DNA of 64,000 bases, from the IMG/VR virus record IMGVR_UViG_3300042274_000333; one strand, 5' to 3'. This DNA comes from an uncultured virus (IMG/VR IMGVR_UViG_3300042274_000333). Its lineage: Duplodnaviria; Heunggongvirae; Uroviricota; Caudoviricetes. The notes beneath the pieces are model-generated. The model saw only the letters and a list, made by a program, of their open reading frames with translations. It made no database searches and was not told where the DNA came from. How positions within the stretch are numbered: position 1 is the first letter of the stretch; every line of letters starts with the position of its first letter. Below are positions 33,165 to 54,720 of this stretch, in pieces. Made by a program: the position numbers and the translations under genes.

Positions 33165-36100
33165 GTGTTTGAATTTAAACAGGATATTTCAAGGGAGATA
33201 TTTTTTAGAAAATATGCTCTTCACGGAGAAAAAACAGTAGAAGAAATCTTAAAAGGAGTAGCAGAAGAAATAGCGTCTGTAGAACCGGATGATAATTTAA
33301 AAAACATTTGGCAAGAGTATTTCTATCAAGCTATGATTTCTGGTAAATTTATCCCAGCGGGAAGAATATTGGCAAATGCTAGACCTTATTCCAGAATGAA
33401 AAACTACAACAACTGTTTTACTATTGATTTAGAGGATTCAATGCCTGGCATTTATGGGCCAGTAAGCGAAGATGCTATCATCGGTCAAATGGGTGGAGGT
33501 GTTGGATTTAACGCTTCAAAACTTCGTCCTAAAGGCGCATTGATTAGCAAAGGCGGAGAAAGTTCTGGCGTTATGAGTTTTATAGAGGTATTTGATACTT
33601 CTGCTAAAGCTATACATACAGGAGGTGGTCGTAGAGGGGCGCACATTTGTATCCTTAATGTAGACCATCCAGATATTGAAGAATTTATTGAATATAAGAA
33701 AGGAAGAGAGAATAATAAACTTACTCAATTTAATATTTCAGTAGGTATTACTGATGAGTTTATGAGAGCAGTTGAAAATGATGAAGACTGGGATTTGGTA
33801 TTCCCTCTTATGAAATTTGAAAGCGAAGAAAATTGTAAAACAAAATGGGTTAAAAACAACTTTGATTTACAATATTGTATAGACCAAGGATATACTGTTG
33901 ACGACACAGATCTTATTTTAGTAAAGGTGTATAAAACTGTAAGAGCAAAAGATTTGTATGAAAGAATGACTAAACAGGCTTGGTGGTATAATGAGCCAGG
34001 TGCTTTGTTCCTTGATACAGTGGAAGCAGGAAACAATGCTTCTCACGCTTTTAAGGTAGATAGATGCAATCCTTGTGGTAAATAATCTTGCCTCAAGTAA
34101 AAAACAGGGTGAACTGCTGGAAAGCTAAATTCTTGAAAAAGAATATGCTAATCAGCATCCAAGGTAGAGTAGGAATACTCTGCAAGGTTCAGAGACTAGG
34201 AAACGATACCAGAACGGTAGGTAATTTTCCCACGAGCGCCCTGCCCCATATTATGGGTGAAGATATAGTCCGACACTCCGGTGAAAATCGGAGAGTTAAG
34301 ATAAAGAGCTTAACAATAACTGATGGAAATCGTAATGCCTTCTTATTCTCTTTGCTGTCTATCTTCTATCAATCTTTCTAAATTGGTAAAAAATCAATTT
34401 ACAGAGAATGCAGAATTTGATTGGGAAGAATTTAAAAACATGGCAAGACTTGGAGTAAGGTTCTTGGATAATGTCTTGGATGCTACTGATTATCCTCTTG
34501 AAAAAATTGAGAAAATATCAAAAGCATGGAGAAGGATTGGTCTTGGAATTACAGGACTTGGCGATGCTTTGTTGAAATTAAAGATTAGATATGGAAGTAA
34601 AGAAAGTGTAGATTTTGTATATGAAATGGGAAATGTCCTAGCAGAAAGTGCGTATAATGCTTCTGTTGATTTAGCATTACAAAAAGGCTCGTTTCCTGCT
34701 TATGATAGTCATATTGGGCATTCTGGATTTATTACAAGGTTAAGTGAAGGAACACAGAAAAGAATTCAAGAAGTCGGGTTAAGAAACATTGGTATATTAA
34801 CCACGGCACCAACCGGATGTCTTGTTCCAGAAAGTATTGTATCAACTAACGATGGTTTATACACATTGGAAGAATTAATTCCTAATTATAAAAACTATGA
34901 AGATGGAACTTGGATACCACAAGAAAATCTTGGAGCATTAAACGAATATGAAAAGTACGAAGGAATAAGGAATACTTTTATAAATGGATTTAAACCTACT
35001 AAAAAAATATCTACAAAGAGTGGTGTAAATTTAGAAGGAACTCCAAATCATAAGTTTAAAGTGTTAAATGGAACTTCGTTTGACTGGAAGAAACTTGAAG
35101 ACCTATCTGTTGGAGATAATATAGTTTATAAAATTGGAGGATATGAAAAGAAAGATAATAAACGGCTTATACTTCCAGATTATGCAAAACACCCTAATGA
35201 AAAAGATATAAGATTACCGGAAGAGATTACCGCTGAATTTGCTTTCTTTTTAGGACTTTATAATGCAGATGGTAGCACTCACAACAAAGGCATAAGAATT
35301 AACTTAAATCATTTAACAAATGAATCAATAGAAGTTGTTGAACTGATTAAGAATTTATTTAATTGGAATTCTAAAGTTGTTGATAATGGTAAAAATTGTG
35401 ACAGTGTGTATATTTCTTCTCAAAGATTACTTAACTTTTTAGAAATTAATGGATTAATAAAAAATAAAGCATTAGGAATAGAAATTCCAAAAGCAGTAAG
35501 ATTATCTTCTAAAGAAAGTATCCTTTCTTATATTGATGGATATTTTTATGGTGATGGTTCAAGCAGCAGAGGGACAATGTATATTGATACTTATTCCGAA
35601 AAAAATGCTCAACAATTAGCTATTATAATGAGAGCAGTAGGTATTAATTCATCTATTTCAGTTTATGATAAATCTCTTGATGAAGGTAGCTATTCAAACA
35701 ATTTATCTTACAGGATTTATTGGAAAAAATATGGCTCTATCGGAGAAGAGAGAGCAAAGAGATATATTAAAAAAGATTTAAAAGAGAAAGTAGATTATCT
35801 TAATGATTATTTTGGAAAGGGATTGTTTATTGATGAAGTTGTTGCTATAAGCGATAGTAATAATTACACTTTAGACTTGGAAGTTCCAGACGGAAGAACT
35901 TATATTGCAAATTCATATGTTAGTCATAACACCACTTCTTTGTCTTTGGGAAATAACTGTTCTTCTGGTATTGAGCCTATTTTCTCTTTGCAGTATGATA
36001 GGTCTATAAGACAGGATGATGATACCACAAAAACACAAACTGTATATGATGATGGATGGCTGGAATACATAGAGTACGCAGGATACAAAGAAGGAAATGA

Positions 36101-36917
36101 TCTTCCTGATTATGTAGTGGTATCCCATAATGTATCTATTACAGAAGGAATAGATATACAGGCAGCACTTCAATACTGGATAGACCACAGTATCAGTAAA
36201 ACCATTAACATGCCTTTTGAAACTACACTAGAGCAATATAAAGATATATTCATGTATTCCTGGAAAAAGGGATTGAAGGGAGTTACTTCTTTTCATGAAG
36301 GTGCTTCTATGGATGGTATTCTTTCTACAAAGAAAGATGATGGATGGAGAAATATTGAGGTATTGAAAAATGCTATGAAACGTCCAGAAAGCTTGCCTTG
36401 CGATATCTATGATATTACAGTTAATAAAGAACCTGTTATTGTCCTAGTTGGTAAAAATCCAGATTCACCTTACAATAACGCACCATATGAAATCTTCTAT
36501 ACAGATAATCATGATGATATAGTTGATTTAAAGAGATTTAAAGAAGGTAGTATTGTTAAGGTATATGATGGTGCTGAAAAAGCCAGTAGATATGATTTGC
36601 TTATTGAAGGCAAGCGAAGTAAGATAGTAGTAGAAAATTTAGCAGAGGTGTTTAATGATGATTATGCTTCTATGTGTAGATTGCTTTCTTTATTGATGAG
36701 GCATCAAGTTCCATTGGAGTTTATTGTCGCACAGATGAATAAAGTAAAGAAGTTTGGGACGTTCCAAAAAGCCATTGCGAGGGTATTGAAGTATTATATA
36801 CCTGATGGAGAAATGATTTCTTCTAATAAAGCAGAATGCCCTGAATGTGGTGGAACTATGGTTTTTGAGGGTGGCTGTACGGTTTGTAGCAGTTGTGGAT
36901 ATTCTACTTGCGGTTGA
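33165..36917 (+). CDS. nrdJ: Class II (B12) ribonucleotide reductase; join(33165..34079,34326..36917); contains intein
   Basis: PAGRIL, NCF, GGGVG, RRGA, FNISV, EPG, NPCG|EI after splicing, RRIGLG, APTG|T, SSGIEP, SKTIN, C-terminal CPEC..CGYSTCG. Confidence 0.93.
34080..34325 (+). mobile_element. Group I intron, 246 nt, no HEG
   Basis: Exon ends in U (TGTGGT), intron ends in G; IGS GCCTCA; P GAACTGCTGGAA, Q AATCAGCA, R TTCAGAGACTA, S AAGATATAGTCC; removal restores NPCGEI. Confidence 0.93.
34818..35930 (+). mobile_element. Intein with LAGLIDADG endonuclease (371 aa)
   Basis: CLVPES.. start, TPNH block B, LGLYNADGS and IDGYFYGDGS, ends VSHN followed by Thr. Confidence 0.93.
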
Positions 36918-37616: not shown

Positions 37617-38057
37617 GTGTTTCTAGCATTTATAGTTGTATATAAAATTTACTTAATACGTGTTGCAAAGAAGTTTTCACTTTTTTGTAACTGGAGACAA
37701 ATGGATAACTTTTTCTTTAAACATTATTTTCTTTTTGCCAGATATATTCATCTATTAAGAAAAGGTAAAAATATATCACAGAGGCTTATTGAAAAAGTGT
37801 CGCTGTTGGAAGAAGAACATAAAGAAAAAGAAAAGCACCATTACGAATATTGGCATGGTAAAAATATGCCTAAAGAATGTTTAGAAGAAATGTTATGTGG
37901 ATGGATGGCTATGGCTATGCTAGCAAAAGCAAATCCAGTTCAGTACGCAAAGGATTGTATAGAAGAAAGCTCTATAAACATTTTTTCTAAAAGATACTTA
38001 TTAAACAAAATACAAGTAAAGGAAAACTTTACTAAAAAAGAAAAACATATCATATAA
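37617..38057 (+). CDS. Hypothetical protein
   Basis: ORF. Confidence 0.55.
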   Translation: MFLAFIVVYKIYLIRVAKKFSLFCNWRQMDNFFFKHYFLFARYIHLLRKGKNISQRLIEKVSLLEEEHKEKEKHHYEYWHGKNMPKECLEEMLCGWMAMAMLAKANPVQYAKDCIEESSINIFSKRYLLNKIQVKENFTKKEKHII

Positions 38058-38072
38058 TCTTGGGAGGTATAT

Positions 38073-38642
38073 ATGGAATTGACAAAAGATAACGCATTCG
38101 TAGGGGCGAGAGTAACCCACCGGACGGAAGGCGAAAATCTTTACGTGTATAAAGTAAATGACAAATCGTTTTACGCAGGATCTAAAACACCAGAAGAGGT
38201 TGAAGAATTTAATAAACCTTCTTTGGATAGTAAGGCAAAAATTTATTCTACGTTTTCAAAACTTATGAAGGCAGTAGGCGGAAAACAATATCAGTACAAA
38301 GATTTTGACATTGACGAAGATGAAGCCGAAAGAAAAGAGAAAAAAGAAAAAATTGACAAACTAAAGAAAGAGCAGAAAAAATATTTATCACCAGCCGCTG
38401 AAAAGTTGGTAAAAAGATTATACAAAATAAGCCAAAGTGGTAAAGGTTCTTGGGGTCATTCTAACTTCGTTAGTAAAACCCATATAGTTTTAATATCAGT
38501 AAATAATGAAGGAAAATGTGTAGTTCGTTCTGGCAGTGATGTAATTTTTTACCATGTTGAAACTGGAATACAAAGATTGTTTGATTACGAAAAAGACAAA
38601 GCTGGGAAAAAAGTTCTTTGGGAAAATTTTGAAATTTTCTAA
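38073..38642 (+). CDS. Hypothetical protein
   Basis: GGAGG RBS. Confidence 0.75.
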   Translation: MELTKDNAFVGARVTHRTEGENLYVYKVNDKSFYAGSKTPEEVEEFNKPSLDSKAKIYSTFSKLMKAVGGKQYQYKDFDIDEDEAERKEKKEKIDKLKKEQKKYLSPAAEKLVKRLYKISQSGKGSWGHSNFVSKTHIVLISVNNEGKCVVRSGSDVIFYHVETGIQRLFDYEKDKAGKKVLWENFEIF

Positions 38643-39218
38643 AAATTTTTTCTAAAATTTATAAAAAAAGCAAAAAATTTCTAAAAAATACCTATATCGG
38701 TGTCGCACTACCACCACAAAAAAAGTGCCTCAAAACCCCTATTATATAGGGGTTTTGCCTATTTAAATCCCCTCTAACTTTTGTATATACCCTAATAAAC
38801 ATTATAAATAACTCTATATATTATAAGGATTTACGAAAATTTTTTACCCGCTTGACAAGAAACTAAAAAAATGCTATAATGATATATCGCGTGGGCGTGC
38901 GCCCGCACGCACGCCCGCCTGTTTTCCTTATAAGAAAATACGTGCGAGGGGCTTGACAAGAAACTAAAAAAATGATAAAATAATGGTATGAAGCGGTCAA
39001 CGCCTTGCAAGGAAAACACTTGCAAGGGGCTTGACAAGAAACTAAAAAAATAGTATTTTAAGCGTGTCGTTTCCGCTTGCCAAGCAAGGCAAGAGGGGCT
39101 TGACAAGAAACTAAAAAAATGGTATTTTGAGCGAGTCAATCGTTAGTCGGTTCTGCCGATTAGGGGCTTGACAAGAAACTAAAAAAATGCTATAATGATG
39201 GCATGACAAGGGGGCTGT

Positions 39219-39563
39219 ATGACTGACTATGGTTTACTGGAACAAGTTAAGGCTGGAGAATATCGTAATGAGCCACTAGGGGTACACGTATGTCCTACTG
39301 GAAAAAAGAGTTATGCTAGGGTAAAACCTGATTATAGAGTAAAGGCGTATGGTGTCCCTGTGACAAATGCGGAAGAATTGTGTCCTGTGGGAAGTATTGC
39401 GTGCTATCATACCAAAGGCGGGAAAGGTGTGCTTATTCCTTGCAAGGTAGAGGAATACCGACACGACAAGGGGAAAGCTGTAATCAGTATAGAAAACGGG
39501 CGTTCTGTGCGTGTTGTATCACAAGACTTTATCCGCCCTTTGTCCCTCTTGACAAGAAACTAA
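39219..39563 (+). CDS. Early hypothetical protein
   Basis: Promoter cassette; stop lies inside next promoter. Confidence 0.65.
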   Translation: MTDYGLLEQVKAGEYRNEPLGVHVCPTGKKSYARVKPDYRVKAYGVPVTNAEELCPVGSIACYHTKGGKGVLIPCKVEEYRHDKGKAVISIENGRSVRVVSQDFIRPLSLLTRN

Positions 39564-39581
39564 AAAAATGGTATCCTACAT

Positions 39582-39636
39582 AAGCCGAAACCGCTTTCGG
39601 GCGGTCTGCCAGTGATACTGGTACTGACGATGGCTA
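39582..39636 (+). ncRNA. Hammerhead ribozyme, type II
   Basis: AGCC-GAAA-CCGC/GCGG-UC^-UGCCAGU/ACUGGUA-CUGACGA-U-GGCU; cleavage after 39606. Confidence 0.88.
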
Positions 39637-39729
39637 AGTAGGGGTGGTGTATCCAAATGGTGGAAACATTACCTACTTGACAAGAAACTAAAAAAATGCT
39701 ACAATGATGGCATGAAGCGAGGTTCTTGA

Positions 39730-39816
39730 ATGGAAGTATGGGAAAGTATTGTGTCTGTTGAGTTTGACGATTTTGACGATTTTGACGACTATTTCTTTGA
39801 TGATGACGAATTTTAG
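39730..39816 (+). CDS. 28-aa acidic micropeptide
   Basis: GAGG RBS, own promoter; MEVWESIVSVEFDDFDDFDDYFFDDDEF. Confidence 0.55.
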   Translation: MEVWESIVSVEFDDFDDFDDYFFDDDEF

Positions 39817-39855
39817 GGGCTTGACAAGAAACTAAAAAAATGGTAAGGTGCTAGT

Positions 39856-39948
39856 ATGACATTTGAAGAAATAATAGACTTGTATATTAGTTTAGGGTAT
39901 CCGTATGAACTAGCGGAAAGTATTGCCCTTGCCGAGTTCGGCAGATAG
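39856..39948 (+). CDS. 30-aa micropeptide
   Basis: AAGGTG RBS; fills a promoter cassette. Confidence 0.5.
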   Translation: MTFEEIIDLYISLGYPYELAESIALAEFGR

Positions 39949-40003
39949 GGGCTTGACAAGAAACTAAAAAAATGCTATAATGATGGCATGACAAGGGGGC
40001 TGT

Positions 40004-40381
40004 ATGGCTTACATGAACCAAGAACGAAAAAAGGTATTAGTGGAAAATGTCAAAAAAGTGCTTGCGGAACAATTTCCAGATGTGAAGATTAAGGCAACAT
40101 ATAGCGTTCGCAATAGAAGTAGCATTGTTATGACAATACAGGAATGTTCTTTGAATCTTCTTGAAGATATGCCAAATAGGGATAGGCACGACGTGAATGT
40201 ATATCATATTGATAGTCATTTTACGGGTAGAAACGCTGAACTATTACAGGCTTGCCGAAATGCTATGATGGTTGGCAATCATGACAACTCTAATGTTATG
40301 GTAGATTATTTTGACGTGGGGTGGTATGTAGATATTCATATCGGGAAATGGGACAAACCTTTTAAAGTAATAGGGGCTTGA
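40004..40381 (+). CDS. Early phage protein (DNS..M.DYFDVGWY motif)
   Basis: Promoter cassette. Confidence 0.75.
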   Translation: MAYMNQERKKVLVENVKKVLAEQFPDVKIKATYSVRNRSSIVMTIQECSLNLLEDMPNRDRHDVNVYHIDSHFTGRNAELLQACRNAMMVGNHDNSNVMVDYFDVGWYVDIHIGKWDKPFKVIGA

Positions 40382-40428
40382 CAAGAAACTAAAAAAATGC
40401 TACAATGATGGCATGACAAGGGGGCTGT

Positions 40429-40599
40429 ATGAATCAAGAGGCAATCAATTCTGCAAAGTGGGAATCGTTTATGAAAGTAATAGAAGTGATACGACCGTTT
40501 GATGTTGCGGGTAAGTTTGAAGCAATCTATAATGCAATAGACCAAATAAACGAGGACACGGAAAATTTTCTGGAAAAAATGGGCATTGTAGCATCTTGA
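40429..40599 (+). CDS. 56-aa early protein
   Basis: Same leader/RBS as 39219 and 40004. Confidence 0.65.
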   Translation: MNQEAINSAKWESFMKVIEVIRPFDVAGKFEAIYNAIDQINEDTENFLEKMGIVAS

Positions 40600-40754
40600 C
40601 AAGGAACTAAAAAAATGGTACAGTTAGGTATATGGTTGTTGTGGTTAGTAGGTGTATTTGCTATTCTTATGGCAATATGGGTCATTTTATGTTTTAAACA
40701 TCTTGGATAGGGGCTTGACAAGAAACTAAAAAAATGCTATAATAAAGAGGCGTT

Positions 40755-41126
40755 ATGACAAGAAAAGAAAAAAGATTTTTTGATAAAGAACTAAACAAAC
40801 TAGCGCACGAAGTGATAGATATATGTATAGCGTGTAGAAAAGAAGGGGTAAAAACTTCCGTATTTGAAGCTAATACTGTCTTTAAATCGTGGGCTAAGAT
40901 AGAGATAGGCAATCTTCTGTTGAGAATAAACGTGAAGGATAGTTATTATCTTTATTATAAAGATGTCTGTTTTGAGGATTATGAAAATATGGCTAATGTT
41001 TTAAGGATTGTATGGAATATCTTTAGCAAAGAAAAGGAAAGGCTTTTACCACTTCTTAATACGCACAAGAACAATAGAATGAGAGAATTTGAAGCTGAAT
41101 TTTCTGCCTACTTGACAAGAAACTAA
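40755..41126 (+). CDS. Early hypothetical protein
   Basis: Promoter cassette. Confidence 0.65.
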   Translation: MTRKEKRFFDKELNKLAHEVIDICIACRKEGVKTSVFEANTVFKSWAKIEIGNLLLRINVKDSYYLYYKDVCFEDYENMANVLRIVWNIFSKEKERLLPLLNTHKNNRMREFEAEFSAYLTRN

Positions 41127-41162
41127 AAAAATGCTATGATGATGGTATGAAAGGATGAAACA

Positions 41163-41522
41163 ATGGATACTAAAAAAATATCTGCTGATGAATATTGGTT
41201 AAAAAATGGTTATGCTATTGTAAAGTTGTCAAGAAAAGACCATAACAAACTTTTGCCTACTAGAATAAAGATTTTTAAGAATGGAAGATATTTTCTAAAA
41301 GAAACGGAAGAAAAAAGATTTGCGTATTATACGAAAGTTAATATATTAGGTAAACTTTTTGCTACTATTGCTTTACCAATTGCAATCATAATAGGGGGTG
41401 TAATAAACATAAAAGAGATATGGCAGGGTTATTTAAGCGTTCTAAATGGGGGTTATAGTGGTTTTAGGAGAATAGATAATATCCATTTGATAGACCTACT
41501 TGACAAGAAACTAAAAAAATGA
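41163..41522 (+). CDS. Early membrane protein
   Basis: Promoter cassette, one TM segment. Confidence 0.65.
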   Translation: MDTKKISADEYWLKNGYAIVKLSRKDHNKLLPTRIKIFKNGRYFLKETEEKRFAYYTKVNILGKLFATIALPIAIIIGGVINIKEIWQGYLSVLNGGYSGFRRIDNIHLIDLLDKKLKK

Positions 41523-41557
41523 TATAATGAGGTATCACAAAAGAAAAGAGGTAAAAA

Positions 41558-41815
41558 ATGGATAAAATTTATGGTCTTTGTTTTGATACTGGTTATATTT
41601 CACCTTCAAGTTTTTGTTTCTTCAAGTGTAAGAACAAAACAGAAACAAGAAAAGCAGGGAATTTATACAGAAAACAGTGGAATGTAGAACCAAAAATTTA
41701 CGCTATAGTTGAAATACCTGCTCATTTAGTGGAAGATGATTTTGAAAAAGCAAGAGAATTTGCCAGTGAAACAGTTAGGAATAGTCCTAAATATAAGTTA
41801 GAATATGGTTTTTGA
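41558..41815 (+). CDS. Early hypothetical protein
   Basis: Promoter cassette. Confidence 0.65.
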   Translation: MDKIYGLCFDTGYISPSSFCFFKCKNKTETRKAGNLYRKQWNVEPKIYAIVEIPAHLVEDDFEKAREFASETVRNSPKYKLEYGF

Positions 41816-41919
41816 GGTCTATTGACAAAAAACTAAAAAAATGATATAATGAGGATGTAAAATGGAAATTTCACAATTCTTGGCTGGTTCCCCATCCCAC
41901 CAGCACCGGAGGAAAAGAT

Positions 41920-42186
41920 ATGAGATTGAAAGAAAAAGACGGTGTGGAATCTTGTGGAGTATGCGGTAAGTATCCCTATATAGGAAAGAGAACATACAGA
42001 GTTGAGATACCTAAAAAGGAAAGATGTTGTCCTATAAATGAATATGATACATATGAAGGTTATGAAATATACTGTTGTAATTCTTGGCATAAGGTCTGTA
42101 AACAAGGGAAAACTTTAGAAGATGCTAAAAGAAAATGGAATGATATTTGGATAAAATCAATACCAGAAGGTATGGTGGGGGCTTGA
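41920..42186 (+). CDS. Cys-rich early protein (Lar-like Zn pattern)
   Basis: GGAGG RBS; CGVCG..YCC..AKRKWN. Confidence 0.6.
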   Translation: MRLKEKDGVESCGVCGKYPYIGKRTYRVEIPKKERCCPINEYDTYEGYEIYCCNSWHKVCKQGKTLEDAKRKWNDIWIKSIPEGMVGA

Positions 42187-42222
42187 CAAAAAACTAAAAA
42201 AATGATATAATGAGGATGTAAA

Positions 42223-42504
42223 ATGGAAAGATGGAAAAGTAATTTGATGGTGCTGGTTCTTTTTATTCCTAATGTTTTGTTAAAAGCATTTGTAATAACT
42301 AAAATATATGTTATGTTTGCCTTGAATGAAGTTTTCAAAGTAGATATAACAATGGCACATTGGATTGGCATTTCTTTTGTGTTAGGTTTGTTATATTCAA
42401 AAAAAAATACAAGCGAAACTCCAGCAGAGGATATGATTGCTTCTTGTATTGCGTTTCTTATGACTTGGGGATTTTCTGCTCTTATCAAGCTGATTATTGG
42501 ATAG
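42223..42504 (+). CDS. Early membrane protein
   Basis: Three hydrophobic segments. Confidence 0.65.
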   Translation: MERWKSNLMVLVLFIPNVLLKAFVITKIYVMFALNEVFKVDITMAHWIGISFVLGLLYSKKNTSETPAEDMIASCIAFLMTWGFSALIKLIIG

Positions 42505-42544
42505 GGGCTTGACAAGAAACTAAAAAAATGCTATAATAGGATAT

Positions 42545-42598
42545 AAGCCGAAACCGCTTTCGGGCGGTCTACCAGTGATGCTGGTACTGATGAGGCTA
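42545..42598 (+). ncRNA. Hammerhead ribozyme, type II (second copy)
   Basis: AGCC-GAAA-CCGC/GCGG-UC^-UACCAGU/GCUGGUA-CUGAUGA-GGCU; cleavage after 42569. Confidence 0.92.
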
Positions 42599-42791
42599 AA
42601 TCAGATTTATGGAATAGGTTTAGTTTTTAGATAGTAGCGTTGCCTACTTGACAAAAAACTAAAAAAATGCTATGATAAGTTAACGAAAAGCGGAAACGCT
42701 GAATGAAAAAACAAGTAGCGTTGCCTACTTGACAAAAAACTAAAAAAATGATACAATAGGGTATCAAACGAAACGTAAAGGAGAACGTAAA

Positions 42792-43136
42792 ATGAGAGAA
42801 GATGTTAAGAATGTATTGTCTGGTCTGTCTTATGACGAGCTGTTGGAAGTTGGCACTTTGCTGACTGATTTGAAGAAAGGTGCAAGAGCTGATGCCAAGG
42901 CTGAAGCTACTGCAACTCAAGAGGCTACTGTGGCTAGAGTGAATGGGCTTATCGCTTCCGGTTCTTTGAAGTTGGGTTCGGAAATTCTTGTTTCTTACAA
43001 GAATAAGGTGGTTAACGCTACCGTCAAGACCGTTCCAACCGAAAAGGCAAAGAACCTTCGGTTGTATTCCGAGTCTTTTGATGGGGAAACTCACGAAAGG
43101 TATGCGGATAAGTTCCGGTTCGTGGACTTGGCGTAG
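42792..43136 (+). CDS. Early hypothetical protein
   Basis: Tandem promoters, AAGGAG RBS, GC hairpin 43149-43166 downstream. Confidence 0.8.
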   Translation: MREDVKNVLSGLSYDELLEVGTLLTDLKKGARADAKAEATATQEATVARVNGLIASGSLKLGSEILVSYKNKVVNATVKTVPTEKAKNLRLYSESFDGETHERYADKFRFVDLA

Positions 43137-43201
43137 AGTCGGATGTCGGAGGGGCTTTTGCCCCTCTTGACAAGAAACTAAAAATATAATATCCTTGTTA
43201 A

Positions 43202-43945
43202 AGCAAGGTTGCACACCACTCCCATTCTGGGGATGGAAACATTATCCTACCTGTGTTCTTCCATTGTCTGGTGTGTAGTAGGTGATTAGGTGCGGTGGTT
43301 TTCTAGGATGTAAAACCGTTTTCTGTAAAATAACGGAAAAAAAGTCTACTATAGTAGATACCACTGTGAAGCTGTTATAAAGGTTTTTGCTTTTTTCCCT
43401 TAATAAACAAGACAGGATAGGTTTTGCTTGTTACCTACTAGAAAAAACAAATGAGTAGGTTTTTGCCCGTTTTACTGAACAAACGTATCCTAGGCAAGGT
43501 GTCGCATGTTTTTTAGTTATGGTTTTTGTAGACAGAAATAAAATAAACTGTGGCTAGTGGGAGATTCACTTAAACTTTTCTCACCTCAACTTATCAAGGT
43601 TAATGGATAGGTAGTTATATATCGCTATTGATATATCGCAGAATGAGCGTCAGATTTTCCGTATTCAAAGTGTCGTAATACTTTGTGGGATATAGTGTTA
43701 GCCTGGGAAAATAAGTTTGCTATACCCTTAATACTGAAAAACATTAGAAGTCCAAGGCAGGCAGTTTACATATTTAAGCGTGAAATATGTCGTTTCTAGA
43801 TAACGTTATATCTAAATCTTTTAGATTTTTGCAAGTTCTGGATAATAGAAAATGTAGCTAAAATGTAAGACAAATTTAGCTATATTAGTTCGGTGTATGG
43901 TGTAGTCCTTGATGTGTCTTTAGAGCATACGCACAGTGTAGCCAA
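43202..43945 (+). ncRNA. Candidate large structured ncRNA (~740 nt)
   Basis: Promoter-bounded, ORF-less, >10 helices, complementary ends. Confidence 0.65.
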
Positions 43946-43997
43946 CTAACTTTATTTGGGGCTTGACAAGAAACTAAAAAAATAGTATAATAAGTTA

Positions 43998-44290
43998 ACG
44001 TTAGGTTATGGAGGTAAATCGCAATGCGAATAAGGGACGCTCCCTAGAAGGTATTTAATATAATATAACAATATTTTTTGGATAATAACCTAGACCTTAC
44101 AAAACGTAGGATTATTTGAATACGTTTGATTAGGAAAAAGAGAAATAACTAGATGTCAGAATAGAGATAAAACTATATCCCTATGGGAGTTAAAGTTTTA
44201 TTTGTTAGTATGGCTGATGTTATTTCTCTTGTTTTTTTTTATGCTTTATGTTTAAAGCCGTTTACTTAACTCGTAAAGGGCTTTAAAGAT
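43998..44290 (+). ncRNA. Candidate structured ncRNA
   Basis: Own promoter; multi-hairpin 5' domain, 93-nt imperfect hairpin + U-tract. Confidence 0.45.
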
Positions 44291-44367
44291 GAAACATGAT
44301 AGGGCTTGACAAAAAACTAAAAAAATGATACCATAAGGTATCAAACGAAACGTAAAGGAGAAACGTA

Positions 44368-44844
44368 ATGGAACGTGAAAGAGATTGTAAAGTGGGGCTT
44401 ATTACGGAAGTTTTGGAAAATAGCGGATTTGAATACATGGTAGTGGATTTGGTTAAAAAGAAATCCGGCACTTTAGATTGGAGCAGGACTGAATGTTTTA
44501 GAGATAAAAGTGATATGTTAGATTTTTACTATAAAGAAGGTGCGGTATATTTCTTTGTTGTAAAAGATCTTGTGCTAAAAATAGGGCAAACTGATAGAAC
44601 TGTTATTAAGCGATTGGAAGATTATAACAAAGGCAGGAATAGTGAAGGCACTGAAGGTTTTGTTATGAAATATCTTAAGAATTGTAATAGCAAAGTAAAA
44701 TTGTATGTTGTTTATCCAGAAGGTGAAATCTCTTTCGGTTCAATGGTAATGCCCATGAGTTCCGCATCATTAGAGGACGCCTTTATTAAAACATATTTTA
44801 GCAAGTTTGGTTGCTTGCCTATTCTTAACAAGGGGTTTTGTTAA
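44368..44844 (+). CDS. GIY-YIG-like nuclease
   Basis: GAVYFF..LKIGQT..RL..E..P.LN. Confidence 0.65.
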   Translation: MERERDCKVGLITEVLENSGFEYMVVDLVKKKSGTLDWSRTECFRDKSDMLDFYYKEGAVYFFVVKDLVLKIGQTDRTVIKRLEDYNKGRNSEGTEGFVMKYLKNCNSKVKLYVVYPEGEISFGSMVMPMSSASLEDAFIKTYFSKFGCLPILNKGFC

Positions 44845-44900
44845 ACCCTCTTGACAAGAAACTAAAAAAATGCTACAATGATAGCATGAAAGGATGAAAC

Positions 44901-45212
44901 ATGAAAGTAAAAGTAATGCTTGATATTAACGAAGAAAATCAAAGATTCACTAATGCTGTTGAAAATCTTATTAGATATAATGAAACGCTTCCAGAAGAAG
45001 AACAATTTTGCCTAGAAGAAGGTGAAAGTTATGCCTTTGATGATGATTATATCAGTACTTACGATACTGATTTGCCTTTTATTATTTTTGATACAAAAAA
45101 GGATTATATGTGTGAAGTAAATAATGGTGATGCTACTTGTTTCTTTATAGGGAAGAAACCTATTAAACTTGAAAAAACAAAGACTATAAATGTTAGTTAT
45201 TACTGGCGTTAA
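44901..45212 (+). CDS. Early hypothetical protein
   Basis: Promoter cassette. Confidence 0.65.
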   Translation: MKVKVMLDINEENQRFTNAVENLIRYNETLPEEEQFCLEEGESYAFDDDYISTYDTDLPFIIFDTKKDYMCEVNNGDATCFFIGKKPIKLEKTKTINVSYYWR

Positions 45213-45223
45213 AGGATAGAAAC

Positions 45224-45436
45224 ATGAATGGAATTTCGGAAAGAGAAAAGGCTTTTAAAATTAGTTATGAAAAGTTTATCAAGAAATGGAATGTAATTCC
45301 AGTTATTTATAAATCGTCTGATGAGTGGGGTGATTTTACCCATTTAGTGTTTATGGAAAATGGTAAATACTGCAACATAAACTGTAGTGTTGATTGTAAA
45401 GTTGTAGATGAAGGCTATCATGGGATGGGGAGTTGA
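45224..45436 (+). CDS. Hypothetical protein
   Basis: AAGGA RBS. Confidence 0.55.
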   Translation: MNGISEREKAFKISYEKFIKKWNVIPVIYKSSDEWGDFTHLVFMENGKYCNINCSVDCKVVDEGYHGMGS

Positions 45437-45440
45437 AAAA

Positions 45441-45680
45441 ATGAGAGGAATGTATTTAGTAAAATATCCCGATGATATGAGTTATTTTGTAGATGGTGAA
45501 GCTACTCAAGTTTATATCTCAAAAGAAGAAGCAGTCGGTAGGATTCAAAATGTAATAGATGCTATGGTTGAGGAAAATGAGGAAAATGTCATAGAAATTG
45601 CCAAAGAAATTGAAATTTATGAAATAGGCGAAAAACTTAATATGATTTTTTCTGTTAAACTTTTAAACATAGAGGATTGA
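45441..45680 (+). CDS. Hypothetical protein, paralogue of 46441..46722
   Basis: Shared QVY..K, MVE, EI.IYEIG..LN. Confidence 0.65.
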   Translation: MRGMYLVKYPDDMSYFVDGEATQVYISKEEAVGRIQNVIDAMVEENEENVIEIAKEIEIYEIGEKLNMIFSVKLLNIED

Positions 45681-45727
45681 CAAAAAACTAAAAAAATGCT
45701 ACAATGATGGCATGAAAGGATGAAACG

Positions 45728-46444
45728 ATGGATACTCTTAAATCTTTAAAAGAAGAAATGCTTGATGCTGAAGTATTTTTTAATAGGGAAGTTGCCGATT
45801 TGGAATATGCTGATGGCATGAATGGCGGTAGAGGTTTTTGGGGTGGAGATAAAAGTTTTAACAACTCTTATAATGCCATTAGAGAAACATTTAGCGGTAA
45901 AGTAGAAAACATTCAGTCAAGATTAAAGAGTATTTTAAATGAATGTGATAAATATGTAGTCTATGGTTTCGGGCATAAACTTCTAGGGACTATTATTTCA
46001 TTTAATGATAAAAATTTATTTGTTTCTAATGGTGATAATACACTATTTAGCACATACAGCTGGGAACAGGTTTATTACATTGAAGATAGTTCAAGGGAAA
46101 ATAGAATACTTAATCTGTATAATACATTTATAATCGGTGAAATAAAAGAACGGATTGATAACATTAGAGAGGATTCAAGGGAGTTTATAGATGAAGTAAT
46201 TTTAAACGAAGAAGGTATCATTGTAGAGGGTAGTCCAGAATATAAAAACCTTATTTATTGCATTTATGGCTATTTTGATAAAATAAATTACGAAGAAACT
46301 GAATGGATTAGCGTTTATTCAAAATTGCTTGAAATGTCTTTAGAAAATCATAACTTCTTTGAAGAAGAAAATATCAGTAGTGATATTTTTCTCATGGTTG
46401 ATGAAATTCTTGATGTTATGATTGAAGAAAATAAATACAAATGA
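45728..46444 (+). CDS. Acidic early hypothetical protein
   Basis: Promoter cassette. Confidence 0.7.
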   Translation: MDTLKSLKEEMLDAEVFFNREVADLEYADGMNGGRGFWGGDKSFNNSYNAIRETFSGKVENIQSRLKSILNECDKYVVYGFGHKLLGTIISFNDKNLFVSNGDNTLFSTYSWEQVYYIEDSSRENRILNLYNTFIIGEIKERIDNIREDSREFIDEVILNEEGIIVEGSPEYKNLIYCIYGYFDKINYEETEWISVYSKLLEMSLENHNFFEEENISSDIFLMVDEILDVMIEENKYK

Positions 46445-46722
46445 AAGAAAAGATGAAAATGAAATATGCAGTAGAGTTTCCAGAAGAATTTCATTACTAT
46501 GTAATGAGAGAGTGTAGCGAAACCGAAGAATTGGTACAAGTTTATTATACTAAAGATGCTTTACTTTTAAATATACGAAATATGGTAGGGGATATGGTAG
46601 AAAACGGAGAAAACTATAACCTTATTTCACGGTTCATAAAGGAAATAAAAATTTATGAAATAGGAAAAGAGTTGAATATATCATACAGTATGGTCTTGAG
46701 CGTAAATGATATAGGGGCTTGA
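46441..46722 (+). CDS. Hypothetical protein
   Basis: Paralogue of 45441. Confidence 0.65.
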   Translation: MKEKMKMKYAVEFPEEFHYYVMRECSETEELVQVYYTKDALLLNIRNMVGDMVENGENYNLISRFIKEIKIYEIGKELNISYSMVLSVNDIGA

Positions 46723-46766
46723 CAAGAAACTAAAAAAATGCTACAATAGCATAAAGGAAAAATAAC

Positions 46767-46973
46767 ATGGCAAATAGGTCGCATCCAGAATCTTGTTTTA
46801 ATGGAAATTTAACGGAGATAGCTTTTCAAGTTCTTAAAGCCGTATTGGATTCATCTAATGATGATATGTCTTCGCTAGACGGCATTGCTGATGCCATAGT
46901 CTTTATTATGGGTAAATCAAGTGCCGAAGAATTAGCATATTTTATAAACGAGAGGATAGAAGATAGTTTGTAG
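46767..46973 (+). CDS. Early hypothetical protein
   Basis: Promoter cassette. Confidence 0.6.
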   Translation: MANRSHPESCFNGNLTEIAFQVLKAVLDSSNDDMSSLDGIADAIVFIMGKSSAEELAYFINERIEDSL

Positions 46974-47046
46974 ATATAAACATATTAACTGGGGCTTGAC
47001 AAGAAACTAAAAAAATGATATAATAAAATATCAATGAGGATGAACG

Positions 47047-47466
47047 ATGAAAGCAAAAGATTTTTTTCCCGATAATGATTATGTGACTTTTTCAAGGTCA
47101 GATTTGGAACGTGCTTTTGAAAAGGCATATAACGCAGGATATACCGAAGCAAATATTACTTCTGGAAAGATGGTTGAAGTTATTTTTATATCAAGAGATA
47201 AATTTGACTTTGGTATGGAAAATTATATTTTTAGCAGAGGTTCTGGTATTGTCATGTTTTATGATGAAGAAATGGCTATGAAATTGTATGATTTTGTCAC
47301 TGATATAGGTTTAGAAACAAAAGATTATACCTTTGAGGAACTTCTTGGAAAAGAAATGGCTAATGATTTTATTGATGGAAGAATGGCAGGTCATGAAAGA
47401 ACTCTTATTAAGGATAAATTTCCAGAATTTGTCAAGAAATATGAGGAAAAGAAAAATGTTAGGTAA
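47047..47466 (+). CDS. Early hypothetical protein
   Basis: Promoter cassette. Confidence 0.65.
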   Translation: MKAKDFFPDNDYVTFSRSDLERAFEKAYNAGYTEANITSGKMVEVIFISRDKFDFGMENYIFSRGSGIVMFYDEEMAMKLYDFVTDIGLETKDYTFEELLGKEMANDFIDGRMAGHERTLIKDKFPEFVKKYEEKKNVR

Positions 47467-47646
47467 AGAAGTATGTTGTTTTGATAAAAAGTGGAAAATA
47501 ATTTGGCAAAGAAATGGTTATATAGGGCTATCTGATGGCAAAAATGTTATAACCATTACAGAGCAAGAATTGAGTGAAGAATGTATAAATCATGAGCTTG
47601 ATATAGAAAGCGAGGGTGGACACCCTTTTGAATAGGAAGTAATAAA

Positions 47647-47832
47647 ATGTTTGAATATCTTGTAAAAGCTATATGGAAACCATTGGTAATTTTAGCCTCT
47701 ATTACAGGGGGGTTTGGTTTATTTTTTATTTTGTTCTATGGTTTTTCTCATATGTTGTCATATTTTATTGCTTTTATTCAAGATATTAGGGGTAAAAATT
47801 GCCCTAAATGGGTAAATAGGGTAATAAAATGA
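47647..47832 (+). CDS. Small membrane protein
   Basis: Hydrophobic ORF. Confidence 0.5.
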   Translation: MFEYLVKAIWKPLVILASITGGFGLFFILFYGFSHMLSYFIAFIQDIRGKNCPKWVNRVIK

Positions 47833-48020
47833 TGTTATTTATTGATTTATTTTTTATTTTTTTTACCGTTCTGCTTGCACTACTTTTTTGCTTTTTATGC
47901 TTTATAATAACAATATATTTTAATGCACTAATCGTTATGCTTGTTTGGGATATATGCGGAAATGAAAACTACCCTGAATGGGTAAATAGAATTTTATATT
48001 GATTTTAAAGGACTTAAGAA

Positions 48021-50518: not shown

Positions 50519-51685
50519 ATGATAGAGTTAAAAGGAAAGTATGAAAACGCAATAATCTATAATGATTTTGCAGAAGAAGGAGCAATATCACAAATAATCT
50601 CTTTATTGAATCAGCCTATGGCAAAAGACGCACATGTAAGGGTAATGCCTGACGTTCACGCAGGCGCTGGGTGCGTAATAGGGTATACTGCAAAACTTAC
50701 TGATAAGGTTGTGCCTAACTTGATAGGAGTAGATATTGGATGTGGAGTTTTGGCTGTTCGTCTGTCAAAGAAATTTGATTTAGACGACATAGAGAAATTT
50801 ACAAAAGAAAATATTCCTACTGGTTCTAGTGTTAGAGATAAAGATGCAAGAAAATTTGACAAAGATTTTCACGAAAGGGTTTTGAAAGTTTGCCGTGAAA
50901 CAGGACAGGGTTTTCATAGGGTTATGAAATCTTTAGGCACTCTTGGTGGTGGAAATCACTTCATTGAAATAGATGAAGATAATGAAGGTAAATTTTGGCT
51001 TTTAGCTCATACTGGTTCAAGAAATTTTGGCAAAAAAATAGCAGAATTTCATCAGGATATGGCAAAGAGTATAAACTACAGAAAAAATGATATTGACACT
51101 TTGAAGCAGAAATATACAGGCGAAGAATTGCGACTTGCTATAGAAGCATTGCCTAAAACTACTAGCGGTCTAGAATGGCTTGAAGGTGATAATTTTTCAA
51201 AGTATTTAGAGCATATGATGGTAGCACAGGAATATGCTTCTATAAATAGAAATATTATTATAGAAGATATATCAGAAAAGTATGGTTATGATAATATAGT
51301 TGAGTCTGTACATAACTATATTGACTTGAAAAATGGTATAATCCGCAAAGGGGCTATCTCTGCTCAAAAAGGAGAGAAAGTTATAATACCTCTTTCAATG
51401 AAAGATGGTGCTATCATAGGCACTGGAAAAGGAAATGAAGAATGGAATTTTTCTGCTCCTCATGGTGCTGGTAGAAAAATGTCAAGAAGTGAAGCAAAGA
51501 AAACGCTTTCTATGGAAGAGTTTGAAGAGCAGATGAAAGGTATTAAATCCTCTTGTATAGGTTTAAGCACTCTTGACGAATCACCTATGGCTTATAAAGA
51601 CCCAGAAGAAATTATAAGGTACTTGGAGCCATCTGTTGAAATTGTAAGAACTTTAAAACCTATATGGAACTTTAAAGCTACTTGA
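50519..51685 (+). CDS. rtcB: RtcB-family RNA ligase
   Basis: MPDVHAG, GVDIGCG, GTLGGGNHFIE, HTGSR, HN, RKGA, SAPHGAGR, DESPMAYK. Confidence 0.96.
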   Translation: MIELKGKYENAIIYNDFAEEGAISQIISLLNQPMAKDAHVRVMPDVHAGAGCVIGYTAKLTDKVVPNLIGVDIGCGVLAVRLSKKFDLDDIEKFTKENIPTGSSVRDKDARKFDKDFHERVLKVCRETGQGFHRVMKSLGTLGGGNHFIEIDEDNEGKFWLLAHTGSRNFGKKIAEFHQDMAKSINYRKNDIDTLKQKYTGEELRLAIEALPKTTSGLEWLEGDNFSKYLEHMMVAQEYASINRNIIIEDISEKYGYDNIVESVHNYIDLKNGIIRKGAISAQKGEKVIIPLSMKDGAIIGTGKGNEEWNFSAPHGAGRKMSRSEAKKTLSMEEFEEQMKGIKSSCIGLSTLDESPMAYKDPEEIIRYLEPSVEIVRTLKPIWNFKAT

Positions 51686-51727
51686 CAAAAAACTAAAAAA
51701 AAGCTATAATAAGAGAGTAAAGGGAAC

Positions 51728-52036
51728 ATGATGAATAAAATTTTTATACACTTAATGGATTTTCACCCTATTATCAAAATGAGATATTCTTCTATTGATA
51801 AAAAGGACATAAGTGAAATTCCAGAGGGTGAATATTGCTATACAACTATTCATCATGACATGGAAACAGGAATAACCGTAACAAAACCTTGTCCCTATCT
51901 CAAAAGGCATAAAAGGTTTTTTGGTTTAGTAAAAGAAGAATTTAACTGGTGTGCCTATTTAAATACAGGGGACGATATACTACTTAATGATGAATGTAAG
52001 TGGTGTGAAGAAAAATTAACGGATTTTGAACAATAA
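51728..52036 (+). CDS. Cys-rich hypothetical protein
   Basis: IPEGEYCY..CPY..C..L.DECKWC. Confidence 0.65.
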   Translation: MMNKIFIHLMDFHPIIKMRYSSIDKKDISEIPEGEYCYTTIHHDMETGITVTKPCPYLKRHKRFFGLVKEEFNWCAYLNTGDDILLNDECKWCEEKLTDFEQ

Positions 52037-52176
52037 GAGAGCAAAAACGAAAAAGGGTTTGTAGTAGGCATTGCAAACCAGGAACCCTGAAACACCCATA
52101 AGCAAGAAGAAATTCTTGTGAGTACGCTGTTAGGTAATGCTGTTCTCTTTCTATGAAGTAAAAAGGAGTTTTATAT

Positions 52177-52497
52177 ATGTGGTTATTTTTGTTTATGATT
52201 TTTATTGTGCTGGGTCTTATTTTGTTTTTTGGCGGAATTTTGGAAGGGCTTGATGAACCTTATTTTTGGATAGGTATTTTGTTAATAGTATTAAGTGCTG
52301 TTTCCTTCGGAATTGATTATACTTCGCCTGTTGAAATAACTCGTACTATTGTGCAAACTAATGACTATGAAACCTATGAACTAAATATAGATTCTGATAA
52401 ACTTGGATATGTAGAAGTAACAAAACATAATCCTACCAGATTTAGTGCCGAAATAAAAGAAAAGACAGAATATATTTTTAAAGGATTTGTAGAATAG
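52177..52497 (+). CDS. Membrane protein
   Basis: Two TM segments, AAGGAG RBS. Confidence 0.65.
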   Translation: MWLFLFMIFIVLGLILFFGGILEGLDEPYFWIGILLIVLSAVSFGIDYTSPVEITRTIVQTNDYETYELNIDSDKLGYVEVTKHNPTRFSAEIKEKTEYIFKGFVE

Positions 52498-52506
52498 GAG
52501 GAGAAA

Positions 52507-52857
52507 ATGTCTATTGATTGGGATGCGTTTAGAGCAGATTTTAATGAAGCAGTTAAAGGTTTGAAGGATAAATATAATATAACTTTAACTACTGGAACCA
52601 TTAGATATACCCCTTCGTCATTTTCTATGCCAGTAAAAGGGCTTATTTCAGATTGGGATATTTCAGGAGAAGAAGCAGAATTTAAACGTCTTTGTAATAT
52701 GTTTGGCAAAAAGCCGGAAGATTATGGTAAAACTTTTACCTATAACGGGAAGATTCTTAAATTTGTCGGGTTTAATACAAAAGCAAGAAAATATCCCTTT
52801 ATAGGGGAAGAAGTTGGAACAGGCAGAAGGTACAAATTTATGAAGGTGGATGTATGA
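52507..52857 (+). CDS. Hypothetical protein
   Basis: GGAGG RBS. Confidence 0.7.
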   Translation: MSIDWDAFRADFNEAVKGLKDKYNITLTTGTIRYTPSSFSMPVKGLISDWDISGEEAEFKRLCNMFGKKPEDYGKTFTYNGKILKFVGFNTKARKYPFIGEEVGTGRRYKFMKVDV

Positions 52858-53036
52858 CCGAGTTTATGAAAAACCTTGATGAAATTTTACATACAGACAA
52901 GGAAGGTAACGGTACATATGAGAACCGTTGTGTTGTGTGTGGTAACATCTTTTTTGGACACAAGCGAGACACCACTTGCAAAAGGTGTATTTTGAAAAGT
53001 GAGTTATCACCAGAACTGCAATCAGTGAAGGAGTAA
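52854..53036 (+). CDS. Small Zn-finger protein
   Basis: CVVC..CKRC. Confidence 0.55.
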   Translation: MTEFMKNLDEILHTDKEGNGTYENRCVVCGNIFFGHKRDTTCKRCILKSELSPELQSVKE

Positions 53037-53041
53037 AAAGA

Positions 53042-53245
53042 ATGGATGGACAAACACTTTTAATGATTGCTATTTGGCTTATTACTGGCATCATTGGAGC
53101 TGTAATGAGTGAAAAGAGAGGAAGAAGCACTGTTGGTGGATTTTGCCTTGGGTTTTTTCTAGGTCTTATAGGTATTGCTATTATTGCATTAGTTGGAGAA
53201 AAAAAGCAAGAAGTTATAACAACTGATAAGATTGATAGGGTGTAA
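53042..53245 (+). CDS. Small membrane protein
   Basis: TM-KRGRS-TM. Confidence 0.7.
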   Translation: MDGQTLLMIAIWLITGIIGAVMSEKRGRSTVGGFCLGFFLGLIGIAIIALVGEKKQEVITTDKIDRV

Positions 53246-53413
53246 AATATAGTTGACAAAAAACTAAAATTTTTATATAATAGAGGAAAGATAAACAATA
53301 TGATTGCTGTATATGTAGTTCTTTATTTGGCTTTGATTTGTTGCATTTGCTTCTTTTTTAAGGGATGCGATAATAAATGACTCTTTTTTAATAAGGTGGT
53401 AAGATATAAATAT

Positions 53414-53551
53414 ATGAAGAAAGATTTAAGACCGTTGTATAAAAATTTAAGTAATCTCTCAACATCCGAAGATAGGAACAGGGGTGGAATAGGCGTATCT
53501 TAATAAGATGCGATTAATATATACCGCCCCTGCGAAAACAGGGGTTTTTTT
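53414..53551 (+). promoter_or_regulatory. Attenuator-like leader upstream of tRNA array
   Basis: 29-codon leader ORF; alternative antiterminator/terminator stems sharing CCCCTG. Confidence 0.5.
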
Positions 53552-53554
53552 ATT

Positions 53555-53626
53555 GCCTTCCTAGTATAATGGTCATTACAAGACTGTGGTATGGTTTAGA
53601 TAGCGGTTCGATTCCGCTGGAAGGCT
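53555..53626 (+). tRNA. tRNA-Thr(GGT)
   Basis: GCCTTCC/GGAAGGC; AGACT-GTGGTAT-GGTTT; TTCGATT. Confidence 0.75.
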
Positions 53627-53630
53627 TAAT

Positions 53631-53715
53631 GGATAGTTGGCAGAGTGGTCTATTGCACTTGTCTAGAAAACAAGAGGATGTAAAAGTTCCAGAGGTTCAA
53701 ATCCTCTACTATCCG
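53631..53715 (+). tRNA. tRNA-Ser(AGA)
   Basis: CTTGT-CTAGAAA-ACAAG; long variable arm; G73. Confidence 0.9.
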
Positions 53716-53741
53716 TATTAAATTGTAAAGGAGAACGTAAA

Positions 53742-54602: not shown

Positions 54603-54613
54603 TATGGCACAAT

Positions 54614-54701
54614 GGAAGCGCAACCCGATAGCTGGCGACGGGAACTGTCTTGAAAACAGCCGAGCGTAACTGCCTTGTGGGTTCGACCCCCACCGCTTCC
54701 G
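54614..54701 (+). tRNA. tRNA-Ser(TGA)
   Basis: GGAAGCG/CGCTTCC; loop CTTGAAA; long variable arm. Confidence 0.88.
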
Positions 54702-54720
54702 TAAAAAAGGATACGTAAAA

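Follow-up and report, generated by a model that had tools for sequence, protein, structure and literature searches.

The 64,000-nt window analysed here, the DNA of an uncultured virus (IMG/VR record IMGVR_UViG_3300042274_000333), belongs to a large, new, SPO1-like (Herelleviridae-related) phage from wastewater, and carries on its + strand a real non-coding early transcription unit within a multi-promoter early region. This unit, hereafter unit A, occupies positions of about 43202-43960, lacks open reading frames (ORFs) and would span 0.75 to 1.1 kb. It probably yields an abundant RNA, in which a 5′ junction domain and an internal 105-nt module are constrained while the rest varies freely. By analogy with the long non-coding RNAs (lncRNAs) of Staphylococcus phage K, which it resembles in kind and not in sequence, unit A could well be a stable trans-acting decoy or regulator RNA, a reading in which we place a little less than even confidence.

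The initial annotation of this DNA had described 43202-43945 as free of ORFs of at least 60 codons on either strand, and this holds, the longest ORFs inside it encoding 40, 39, 38 and 32 amino acids. The longest ORF-free stretch of the entire window lies here, measuring 1197 nt on the + strand (43171-44367; the runner-up is 599 nt) or 1068 nt when both strands are counted (43215-44282). Reading TGA as tryptophan gave at most 62 amino acids in the stretch; reading TAG as glutamine gave 116-117 amino acids, but via read-through of three to five stops, and none of the 19 tRNAs in the window is a suppressor. With no opened frame and no suppressor tRNA, an alternative genetic code was ruled out for the stretch. 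None of its small ORFs has a Shine-Dalgarno motif at proper spacing, as judged by reading the sequence, and an 18-codon ORF within the 5′ domain is disfavoured as coding because its changes in a related metagenome contig (L012) are exclusively non-synonymous (six nucleotides, giving four residue changes).

A promoter-like site, fitting the early promoter proposed in the initial annotation, lies ahead of the stretch at 43167-43195 (+ strand; TTGACA, 17 nt, TATCCT; 10 of 12 positions matching, no TG extension) and is conserved in L012. It belongs to the family of the promoter word CTTGACAARAAACTAAAAA, of which 33 + strand copies with at most two mismatches occur between 38851 and 63577, against a chance expectation of 0.03; most of these copies have the complete TTGACA-17-TATAAT promoter plus a TG extension and precede small ORFs. 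Serial near-identical promoters heading small ORFs are the layout of the SPO1 host-takeover region. The variant TATCCT -10 box of unit A is found in L012 and again at 39548-39577 (90% identical over 39 nt), where it heads another ORF-less unit. The position of the promoter would place the start of unit A near 43202. No terminator was found between the 3′ part of unit A and the next promoter (43963), and transcription probably continues into the neighbouring unit B, up to the U-run at 44232-40.

Logan contigs of four sequencing runs were placed on positions 39000-48000, with depth given as one figure per contig, which shows no strand, start, end or which part is abundant. In the metatranscriptome X11, a single contig of a variant strain (1616 nt, depth 97) covers 42610-43304 together with 43509-44165, and a contig from X12, a metatranscriptome of the same study, covers the same region (1356 nt, depth 68.9). 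The other listed phage pieces reached depths of 2.1-8.56 (six in X11) and 10 (one in X12), and the maximum depth of X11 bins outside 42612-44417 was 7.8, with uncovered parts of 39000-48000 in either library being no evidence of silence. The unit A contig is therefore 10 to 30 times deeper than other phage pieces in both RNA libraries and, because uniform carry-over of DNA would not yield such a depth pattern, the region is probably abundant as RNA. The 3′ end of the deep contig (44165 plus 56 letters) lies just ahead of an inverted repeat and T9 at 44219-44240, and would fit termination there. The ORF-less stretch itself was detected in at least 24 sequencing runs from 17 studies, with wastewater predominating; runs X1-X15 contain 21-98% of its sequence words.

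Natural variants reveal which parts of unit A are kept, and thereby narrow future experiments to two small elements, the 5′ three-way junction and the 105-nt module. Four were compared, one as full DNA (L012, 1479 nt) and three through contig comparison only (X11, X12 and X14). Common to all four are only 43202-43304 and 43659-43763; the remainder is replaced or deleted. L012 is 89.7% identical to the window over 43202-43346 (block 1; 14 transitions and one transversion, plus indels), substitutes 73 other nucleotides for 43347-56, returns to 86% identity over 43357-43407 and has 64 nt where the window has 43408-43658. It is then 97% identical over 43659-43763 (two transitions, one transversion, one deletion) before 203 nt stand in place of 43764-43958. 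These 203 nt include an ORF (L012 1035-1211) that has 58 codons when started at TTG and 47 when started at an internal GTG, with no evident Shine-Dalgarno motif. In X11 and X12, 197 non-aligning letters replace 43304-43509. X12 matches 43011-43304 without any difference, all 12 counted differences falling at or before 43010. Over 43509-44165, 37 differences were counted for X11/X12, 16 of them with a known position; six of these 16 lie in 43509-43945, all of them transitions, and represent a lower bound. X14 is collinear with the window over 42508-43387, jumps to 43659 and has a gap over 43867-43940; another cassette swap in its early region puts 506 other letters between 41528 and 42508. The ratio of transitions to transversions in block 1 of L012 is 14:1, versus 7:8 in the gene directly upstream of unit A, which encodes 114 amino acids and is 95.7% identical in L012, with a synonymous divergence (pS) of 0.074 and a non-synonymous divergence (pN) of 0.034.

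The 5′ core is modelled as a three-way-junction domain (43205-43279, + strand) that extends to about 43346. Its predicted helices are P1 (43209-18/43269-78), P2 (43221-24/43228-31) and P3 (43232-42/43253-65); a pair 43220/43232 extends P2 in the whole-region fold, and the alignment with L012 puts 43232 in P3. The domain folds identically from the window only and from the window plus L012 (minimum free energy (MFE) z-score -1.74), and its sequence in X12 is the same as in the window. L012 carries 11 substitutions in these 75 nt, seven of them within pairs, and no pair is broken: one change is a compensatory A-U to G-C at 43218/43269, and three are G.U to A-U changes that fit the + strand only, as they would leave C.A mismatches on the other. 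Taking the window-only fold and 100,000 trials, the chance of all pairs staying intact was 0.040 with 11 random transitions and 0.0003 with random substitutions. The second part of block 1 (43280-43346, + strand), present in the window, L012 and X14 and replaced from 43305 in X11 and X12, holds a hairpin at 43316-43336, in which both L012 changes fall in the loop.

The internal module (43659-43763, + strand; S8), whose near-identity to L012 compares with the pS of 0.074 in the flanking gene, has a predicted hairpin at 43666-85 and two further helices, 43687-95/43720-27 and 43696-706/43752-63, which cannot both nest and therefore imply a pseudoknot or alternative folds. Its MFE z-score is -0.22, and the module is near-invariant, so its fold is a prediction only. 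Five nucleotides 3′ of the module a run of eight T begins in L012, where the window has GTTTACATATTT. Cofolding of the two cores predicted a GGUGCGG/CCGUAUU pairing; both strands of it are invariant, hence there is no covariation. Between and behind the cores lie a variable middle (43347-43658, + strand), with a 14-bp palindrome at 43345-58, a decayed promoter-like copy at 43431-47, helices at 43406-60 and 43557-84 and the repeats D7 and D15, and a variable 3′ part (43764-43958, + strand), with hairpins at 43768-90 and 43851-86, which X11 keeps with four listed transitions. Positions 43845-43883 (39 nt, at the latter hairpin) are the sole match of a contig from a DNA run (X10; depth about 130) with unrelated flanks; this small hairpin module therefore also occurs in another abundant genome.

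The stretch had initially been viewed as a possibly new, large and densely base-paired phage RNA, its size recalling GOLLD and ROOL. Its non-coding nature, its lack of an Rfam match and its place on a contig that is deep in RNA libraries bear out part of that description; one large dense structure is not borne out. All nine of the helices and pairings named at the outset are fully complementary at their coordinates, with zero to two G.U pairs each (43666-85 being a hairpin), and the majority of them fall in segments that are replaced or deleted among the variants. Base pairing of the whole region does not exceed chance, with MFE z-scores of -1.86 on the + strand and -1.17 on the - strand (20 shuffles each), compared with -1.50 and -0.47 in coding controls (100 shuffles each), and the lower energy of the + strand is compositional because the shuffled means differ too (-175 versus -141). 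A helix between the two ends, suggested to compete with the local helix 43209-18/43269-78, is possible in the window, where the ends are complementary, but is lost in L012 with the replacement of the 3′ third; the local helix is retained there with one compensatory change. As anticipated, no known family accounts for the stretch: it matches none of 4,227 Rfam models, among which we take GOLLD, ROOL, OLE, RNase P, tmRNA and introns to be included. At gathering thresholds the whole window gave 18 matches, all tRNA, and at E-values up to 10 the region 43100-44400 gave 14 matches, the best at 20.6 bits and all far under gathering scores.

Among the sub-threshold matches, the head of unit A resembles a CRISPR repeat. 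The 33-mer at 43208-43240 (+ strand), at the predicted 5′ end of the RNA and overlapping P1-P3, begins with GUUG, contains a C/G hairpin and ends in AUGGAAAC. Its top Rfam match is CRISPR-DR18, at 19.4 bits versus a gathering score of 50 (E-value 0.19 in a 111-nt search and 2.2 in a 1301-nt search), which aligns end to end as GUU...UCCC[6]GGGAU.GAAAC; DR10 and DR31 match the same place, making the three best matches of the first 111 nt CRISPR repeat families, all below thresholds. L012 differs from it at six or seven of the 33 positions but retains the 5′ GUU and the final 8 nt, and its hairpin gains two U-A pairs. An exact-pattern scan of the 3′ 20 nt (two degenerate positions) across 185,579 species genomes, which misses diverged repeats, found no CRISPR array and three single chance-level matches. 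When the 35-mer was compared by blastn, plasmids gave no match and the three partial matches in phages involved no CRISPR repeat; no second copy of the unit occurs within the window. A search with the CRISPR-DR18 family was without a working control, as none of the 14 control genomes matched.

Several observations weigh against a functional, trans-acting unit A. Six sub-segments of the stretch fold at background level on the + strand (z-scores of -0.22 to -1.74, 200 shuffles each); on the predicted structure, the X11 changes placed within 43509-43945 have mixed effects, two of the six (43875 and 43910) being expected to break predicted pairs; and in a covariation test on the two full sequences, which has no statistical power, 246 of 500 shuffles reached the observed score. 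No trans target or partner emerged, and a search of the rest of the window for complementarity to the stretch returned nothing with an E-value below 0.7. The divergence of block 1 from L012 (10.3%) is not below the synonymous divergence of the gene (7.4%), so no sequence-level purifying selection is demonstrated there. The non-coding promoter stretch upstream is likewise rich in transitions (8:2), and the low divergence of other parts may reflect recent recombination rather than constraint. The deep RNA contigs also include the upstream 114-aa gene and three promoters, and their 5′ end (42594, with 16 loose letters counted) reflects assembly and not an RNA end because it coincides with the boundary of a 51-nt repeat (42543-42593). 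The -10 box of unit A is itself weak (four of six positions, no TG). Background folding energy and a block 1 divergence at or above the synonymous rate favour instead a non-functional spacer, i.e. the remains of small early genes and promoter copies that have decayed and been reshuffled as the 33 near-identical promoters recombined, with transcription owed only to the strong promoters around it, in which the conserved blocks would be recently exchanged DNA. The mosaic replacement or deletion of most of the stretch among four variants, the decayed promoter-like copy with the internal repeats, and the cassette swaps elsewhere in the early region of X14 point the same way. Such a spacer nevertheless seems unlikely to us, if far from fanciful: two cores are retained in all four variants amid changing surroundings, no pair of the 5′ domain is broken by the L012 substitutions (p about 0.04), the covering contig is 10 to 30 times deeper than early units with equal or better promoters, and a gap of 1.2 kb is an outlier in a tightly packed genome. 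Alternatively, the stretch could be a cis-acting 3′ untranslated region (UTR) of the 114-aa gene, long and structured, that stabilises or terminates an early message, and no RNA in its own right. The gene adjoins the 5′ domain in all four variants, a single RNA-library contig spans 42610, the gene and all of unit A, and read-through into a unit with a weak -10 box is likely at the intervening hairpin (43149-66), which has no U-run. We judge this distinctly improbable, given that the -35 box, spacing and TATCCT are kept in L012, that the same promoter variant heads the ORF-less unit at 39548, that a contig across two units does not prove a single transcript, and that a 3′ UTR of 800 to 1100 nt would be exceptionally long in bacteria or phages.

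In a narrower version of the decoy reading, the head of unit A would be an RNA anti-CRISPR (Racr) or CRISPR RNA (crRNA)-like mimic, imitating a Cas6-type host repeat with its hairpin and 8-nt tag (AUGGAAAC) and trapping Cas6 or Cas complex subunits early in infection, with the long tail adding stability. CRISPR families head the Rfam list in the first 111 nt and DR18 aligns over its full length, the prediction puts the element at the very 5′ end of an early transcript, and L012 keeps its GUU, last 8 nt and hairpin despite six or seven changes; solitary repeat units encoded by phages and acting as Racrs have been published (PMC10651486). The score is nonetheless far under the gathering threshold and the E-value in the 1301-nt search is 2.2, no array or relevant plasmid or phage match emerged and the window has no second copy, and the tag-like end forms part of P3 in the predicted fold, so that we regard the mimic as a long shot. 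The same low probability attaches to the fuller picture, in which the repeat mimic is joined to a three-way junction that stabilises the RNA and to a long, modular tail whose variable segments differ between strains. If that picture were right, RNA anti-CRISPRs would gain a new and large format, which an SPO1-like phage would produce in the opening minutes of infection; a head that proved to be a Cas6 decoy would in turn connect phage lncRNAs with anti-defence. The stretch might also act as DNA, either as a transcription-primed replication origin with an R-loop primer, as exemplified by ColE1 RNA II and the T4 ori transcripts, or as an array of protein-binding sites. Such an element would be in keeping with the lack of ORFs downstream of a promoter, with four RGGTTTT(T)G copies (43382, 43419, 43457, 43521) and with the 14-bp palindrome; we consider it very improbable, since these motifs lie in variable segments missing from L012, X11 or X14, no AT-rich unwinding block is present (GC 0.33-0.43, against 0.27-0.33 in downstream units) and the high depth comes from RNA libraries. 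Scarcely credible, finally, is a single large RNA with the ornate, dense structure of the GOLLD/ROOL/OLE class: size, phage origin and many local helices speak for it, and against it stand the empty Rfam comparison, MFE z-scores at background, the restriction of conservation to two short parts, and the replacement or deletion of two thirds of the length among close variants, unlike a single tertiary fold.

The trans-acting decoy or regulator that we tentatively favour would operate as follows. Host sigma-A RNA polymerase would start at about 43202 immediately after infection, and the 5′ domain would fold first, making the RNA long-lived and/or serving as a binding site for a host protein. The RNA would then act in trans as a stable decoy or sponge in host takeover. 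Its variable segments would serve as spacers, and its internal module would either provide another binding site or terminate transcription, given the U8 that follows it by 5 nt in L012.

The closest known system is Staphylococcus phage K/vB_SauM-515A1 (Kayvirus, Herelleviridae), a large SPO1-like myovirus that, as is probable for the phage described here, has ORF-less RNA of at least 600 nt. The published account (PMC9241854) gives two such lncRNAs (lnc001 and lnc002) of 635 and 1154 nt (13595-14229 and 37679-38832 of NC_005880.2) and likens them to GOLLD/ROOL by position and abundance. An early promoter of its own is reported for one of them, as is the top read count of the phage; neither has an assigned role there or in a review (PMC10383478). 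Unit A, at 0.75 to 1.05 kb, follows an early-type promoter-like site with a consensus -35 and a weak -10 box and lies on a contig, shared with the upstream gene, that is deep in two RNA libraries of one study; an own early promoter and an abundance above that of its neighbours may therefore be features in common. In contrast, the phage K lncRNAs adjoin tRNA genes, whereas the tRNA array of the window begins 9.6 kb downstream of unit A (nearest tRNA at 53555). The two share no sequence that we could detect: comparison of the phage K lncRNA regions with unit A and L012 by blastn (word size 7) gave promoter-like or chance matches only, and nhmmer gave nothing. The phages themselves are only distantly related, the RtcB protein of the window reaching no more than 45% identity with its counterparts in Herelleviridae of Bacillus and Listeria. 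In the region of the shorter phage K lncRNA, positions 13632-13768 (L026 833-969, minus strand) match the DUF3800-I RNA family at 43.4 bits, against a gathering score of 44.2.

Other systems share single features with unit A. With Racrs and viral crRNA-like RNAs it shares a single hairpin that resembles a CRISPR repeat and immediately follows a phage promoter, within a region for host takeover. They differ in that Racrs are small, whereas the repeat-like unit of unit A would head an RNA of at least 0.75 kb and its similarity is under every threshold. GOLLD, ROOL and OLE, which occur in phages of Firmicutes, share its size class; unit A differs from them in having no Rfam match, no excess folding energy and most of its length unconserved. 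Such large RNAs are named in PMC9241854 and PMC12286853. Large Firmicutes phages make abundant lncRNAs of unassigned role, with phage K as the published case, and the locus described here adds an unrelated example from an uncultured lineage. The host-takeover module of SPO1 shares with the window a long run of near-identical strong sigma-A promoters before small early units. The SPO1 units encode small proteins, whereas the ORF-less units of the window comprise unit A, unit B, 39583-39670, 42543-42640 and four between 38880 and 39160.

The immediate neighbours of unit A belong to the same early region. The upstream gene (42792-43136, + strand), with an AAAGGAG Shine-Dalgarno motif, has no Pfam or PHROG match and lies on the same high-depth X11 RNA contig as the ORF-less stretch. 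It is followed by the GC-rich hairpin GAGGGGC-TTTT-GCCCCTC (43149-43166, + strand), which abuts the -35 box of unit A, is invariant in L012 and, judged by its letters, could act as a weak terminator for the upstream gene or mark where its RNA ends. Downstream, unit B (43963-44300, + strand) is a second ORF-less unit with a perfect promoter (43963-91), a mini-ORF of seven codons (44010-44047, + strand; ATG at 44024, GGAGG Shine-Dalgarno), a long inverted repeat (44139-49/44219-29, + strand) followed by T9 at 44232-40, and a further hairpin read from the sequence (44251-87, + strand). Its MFE z-score is -3.5 on both strands; it is not conserved in L012 and is strongly diverged in X11.

Relatives of the phage and its locus are scarce. 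Blastn and megablast of the region and of 20 kb against 50,697 phage records found no related DNA, and tblastn of the protein encoded downstream found no match. IMG/VR held no relatives of the two flanking proteins, and none of a flanking protein was found in genome contigs; the downstream protein has a single relative, at 61% identity, among 5.8 billion proteins. The promoter word occurs at 11 loci in IMG/VR, of which just one record (G001) has both promoters and tRNAs in common with the window, and that record is without a homologue of unit A. Exact 18-20-mers of the two cores returned nothing from IMG/VR, or one chance 20-mer (L013).

The early region begins at 38851-39185 with five full promoter copies in tandem, spaced 68-101 nt apart; each of the first four is then followed by 40-70 nt of GC-rich hairpin sequence without an ORF, e.g. 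38889-38925 with its T-run. Further along, 39580-39630 and 42543-42593 are 94% identical copies of a small ORF-less two-hairpin unit, each directly 3′ of a promoter, and TGGAAACATTACCTAC at 39661-76, at the end of the first of these small units, resembles 43234-51 in the 5′ domain of unit A.

Elsewhere, the gene content of the window includes baseplate and tail genes, a split ribonucleotide reductase, RtcB, a CCA-adding enzyme and 19 tRNA genes. The large subunit of the reductase is encoded by two ORFs (33165-34085 and 34323-36917), the second with an endonuclease-like insert that suggests an intron and/or intein. A cluster for tRNA repair and tRNAs occupies 50519-63786 and comprises RtcB, the CCA-adding enzyme, a phosphohydrolase and the 19 tRNAs, two of them tRNA-Glu and five tRNA-Leu; within it, an HNH endonuclease ORF (56159-56707) overlaps the end of a tRNA-Leu (56104-56185).

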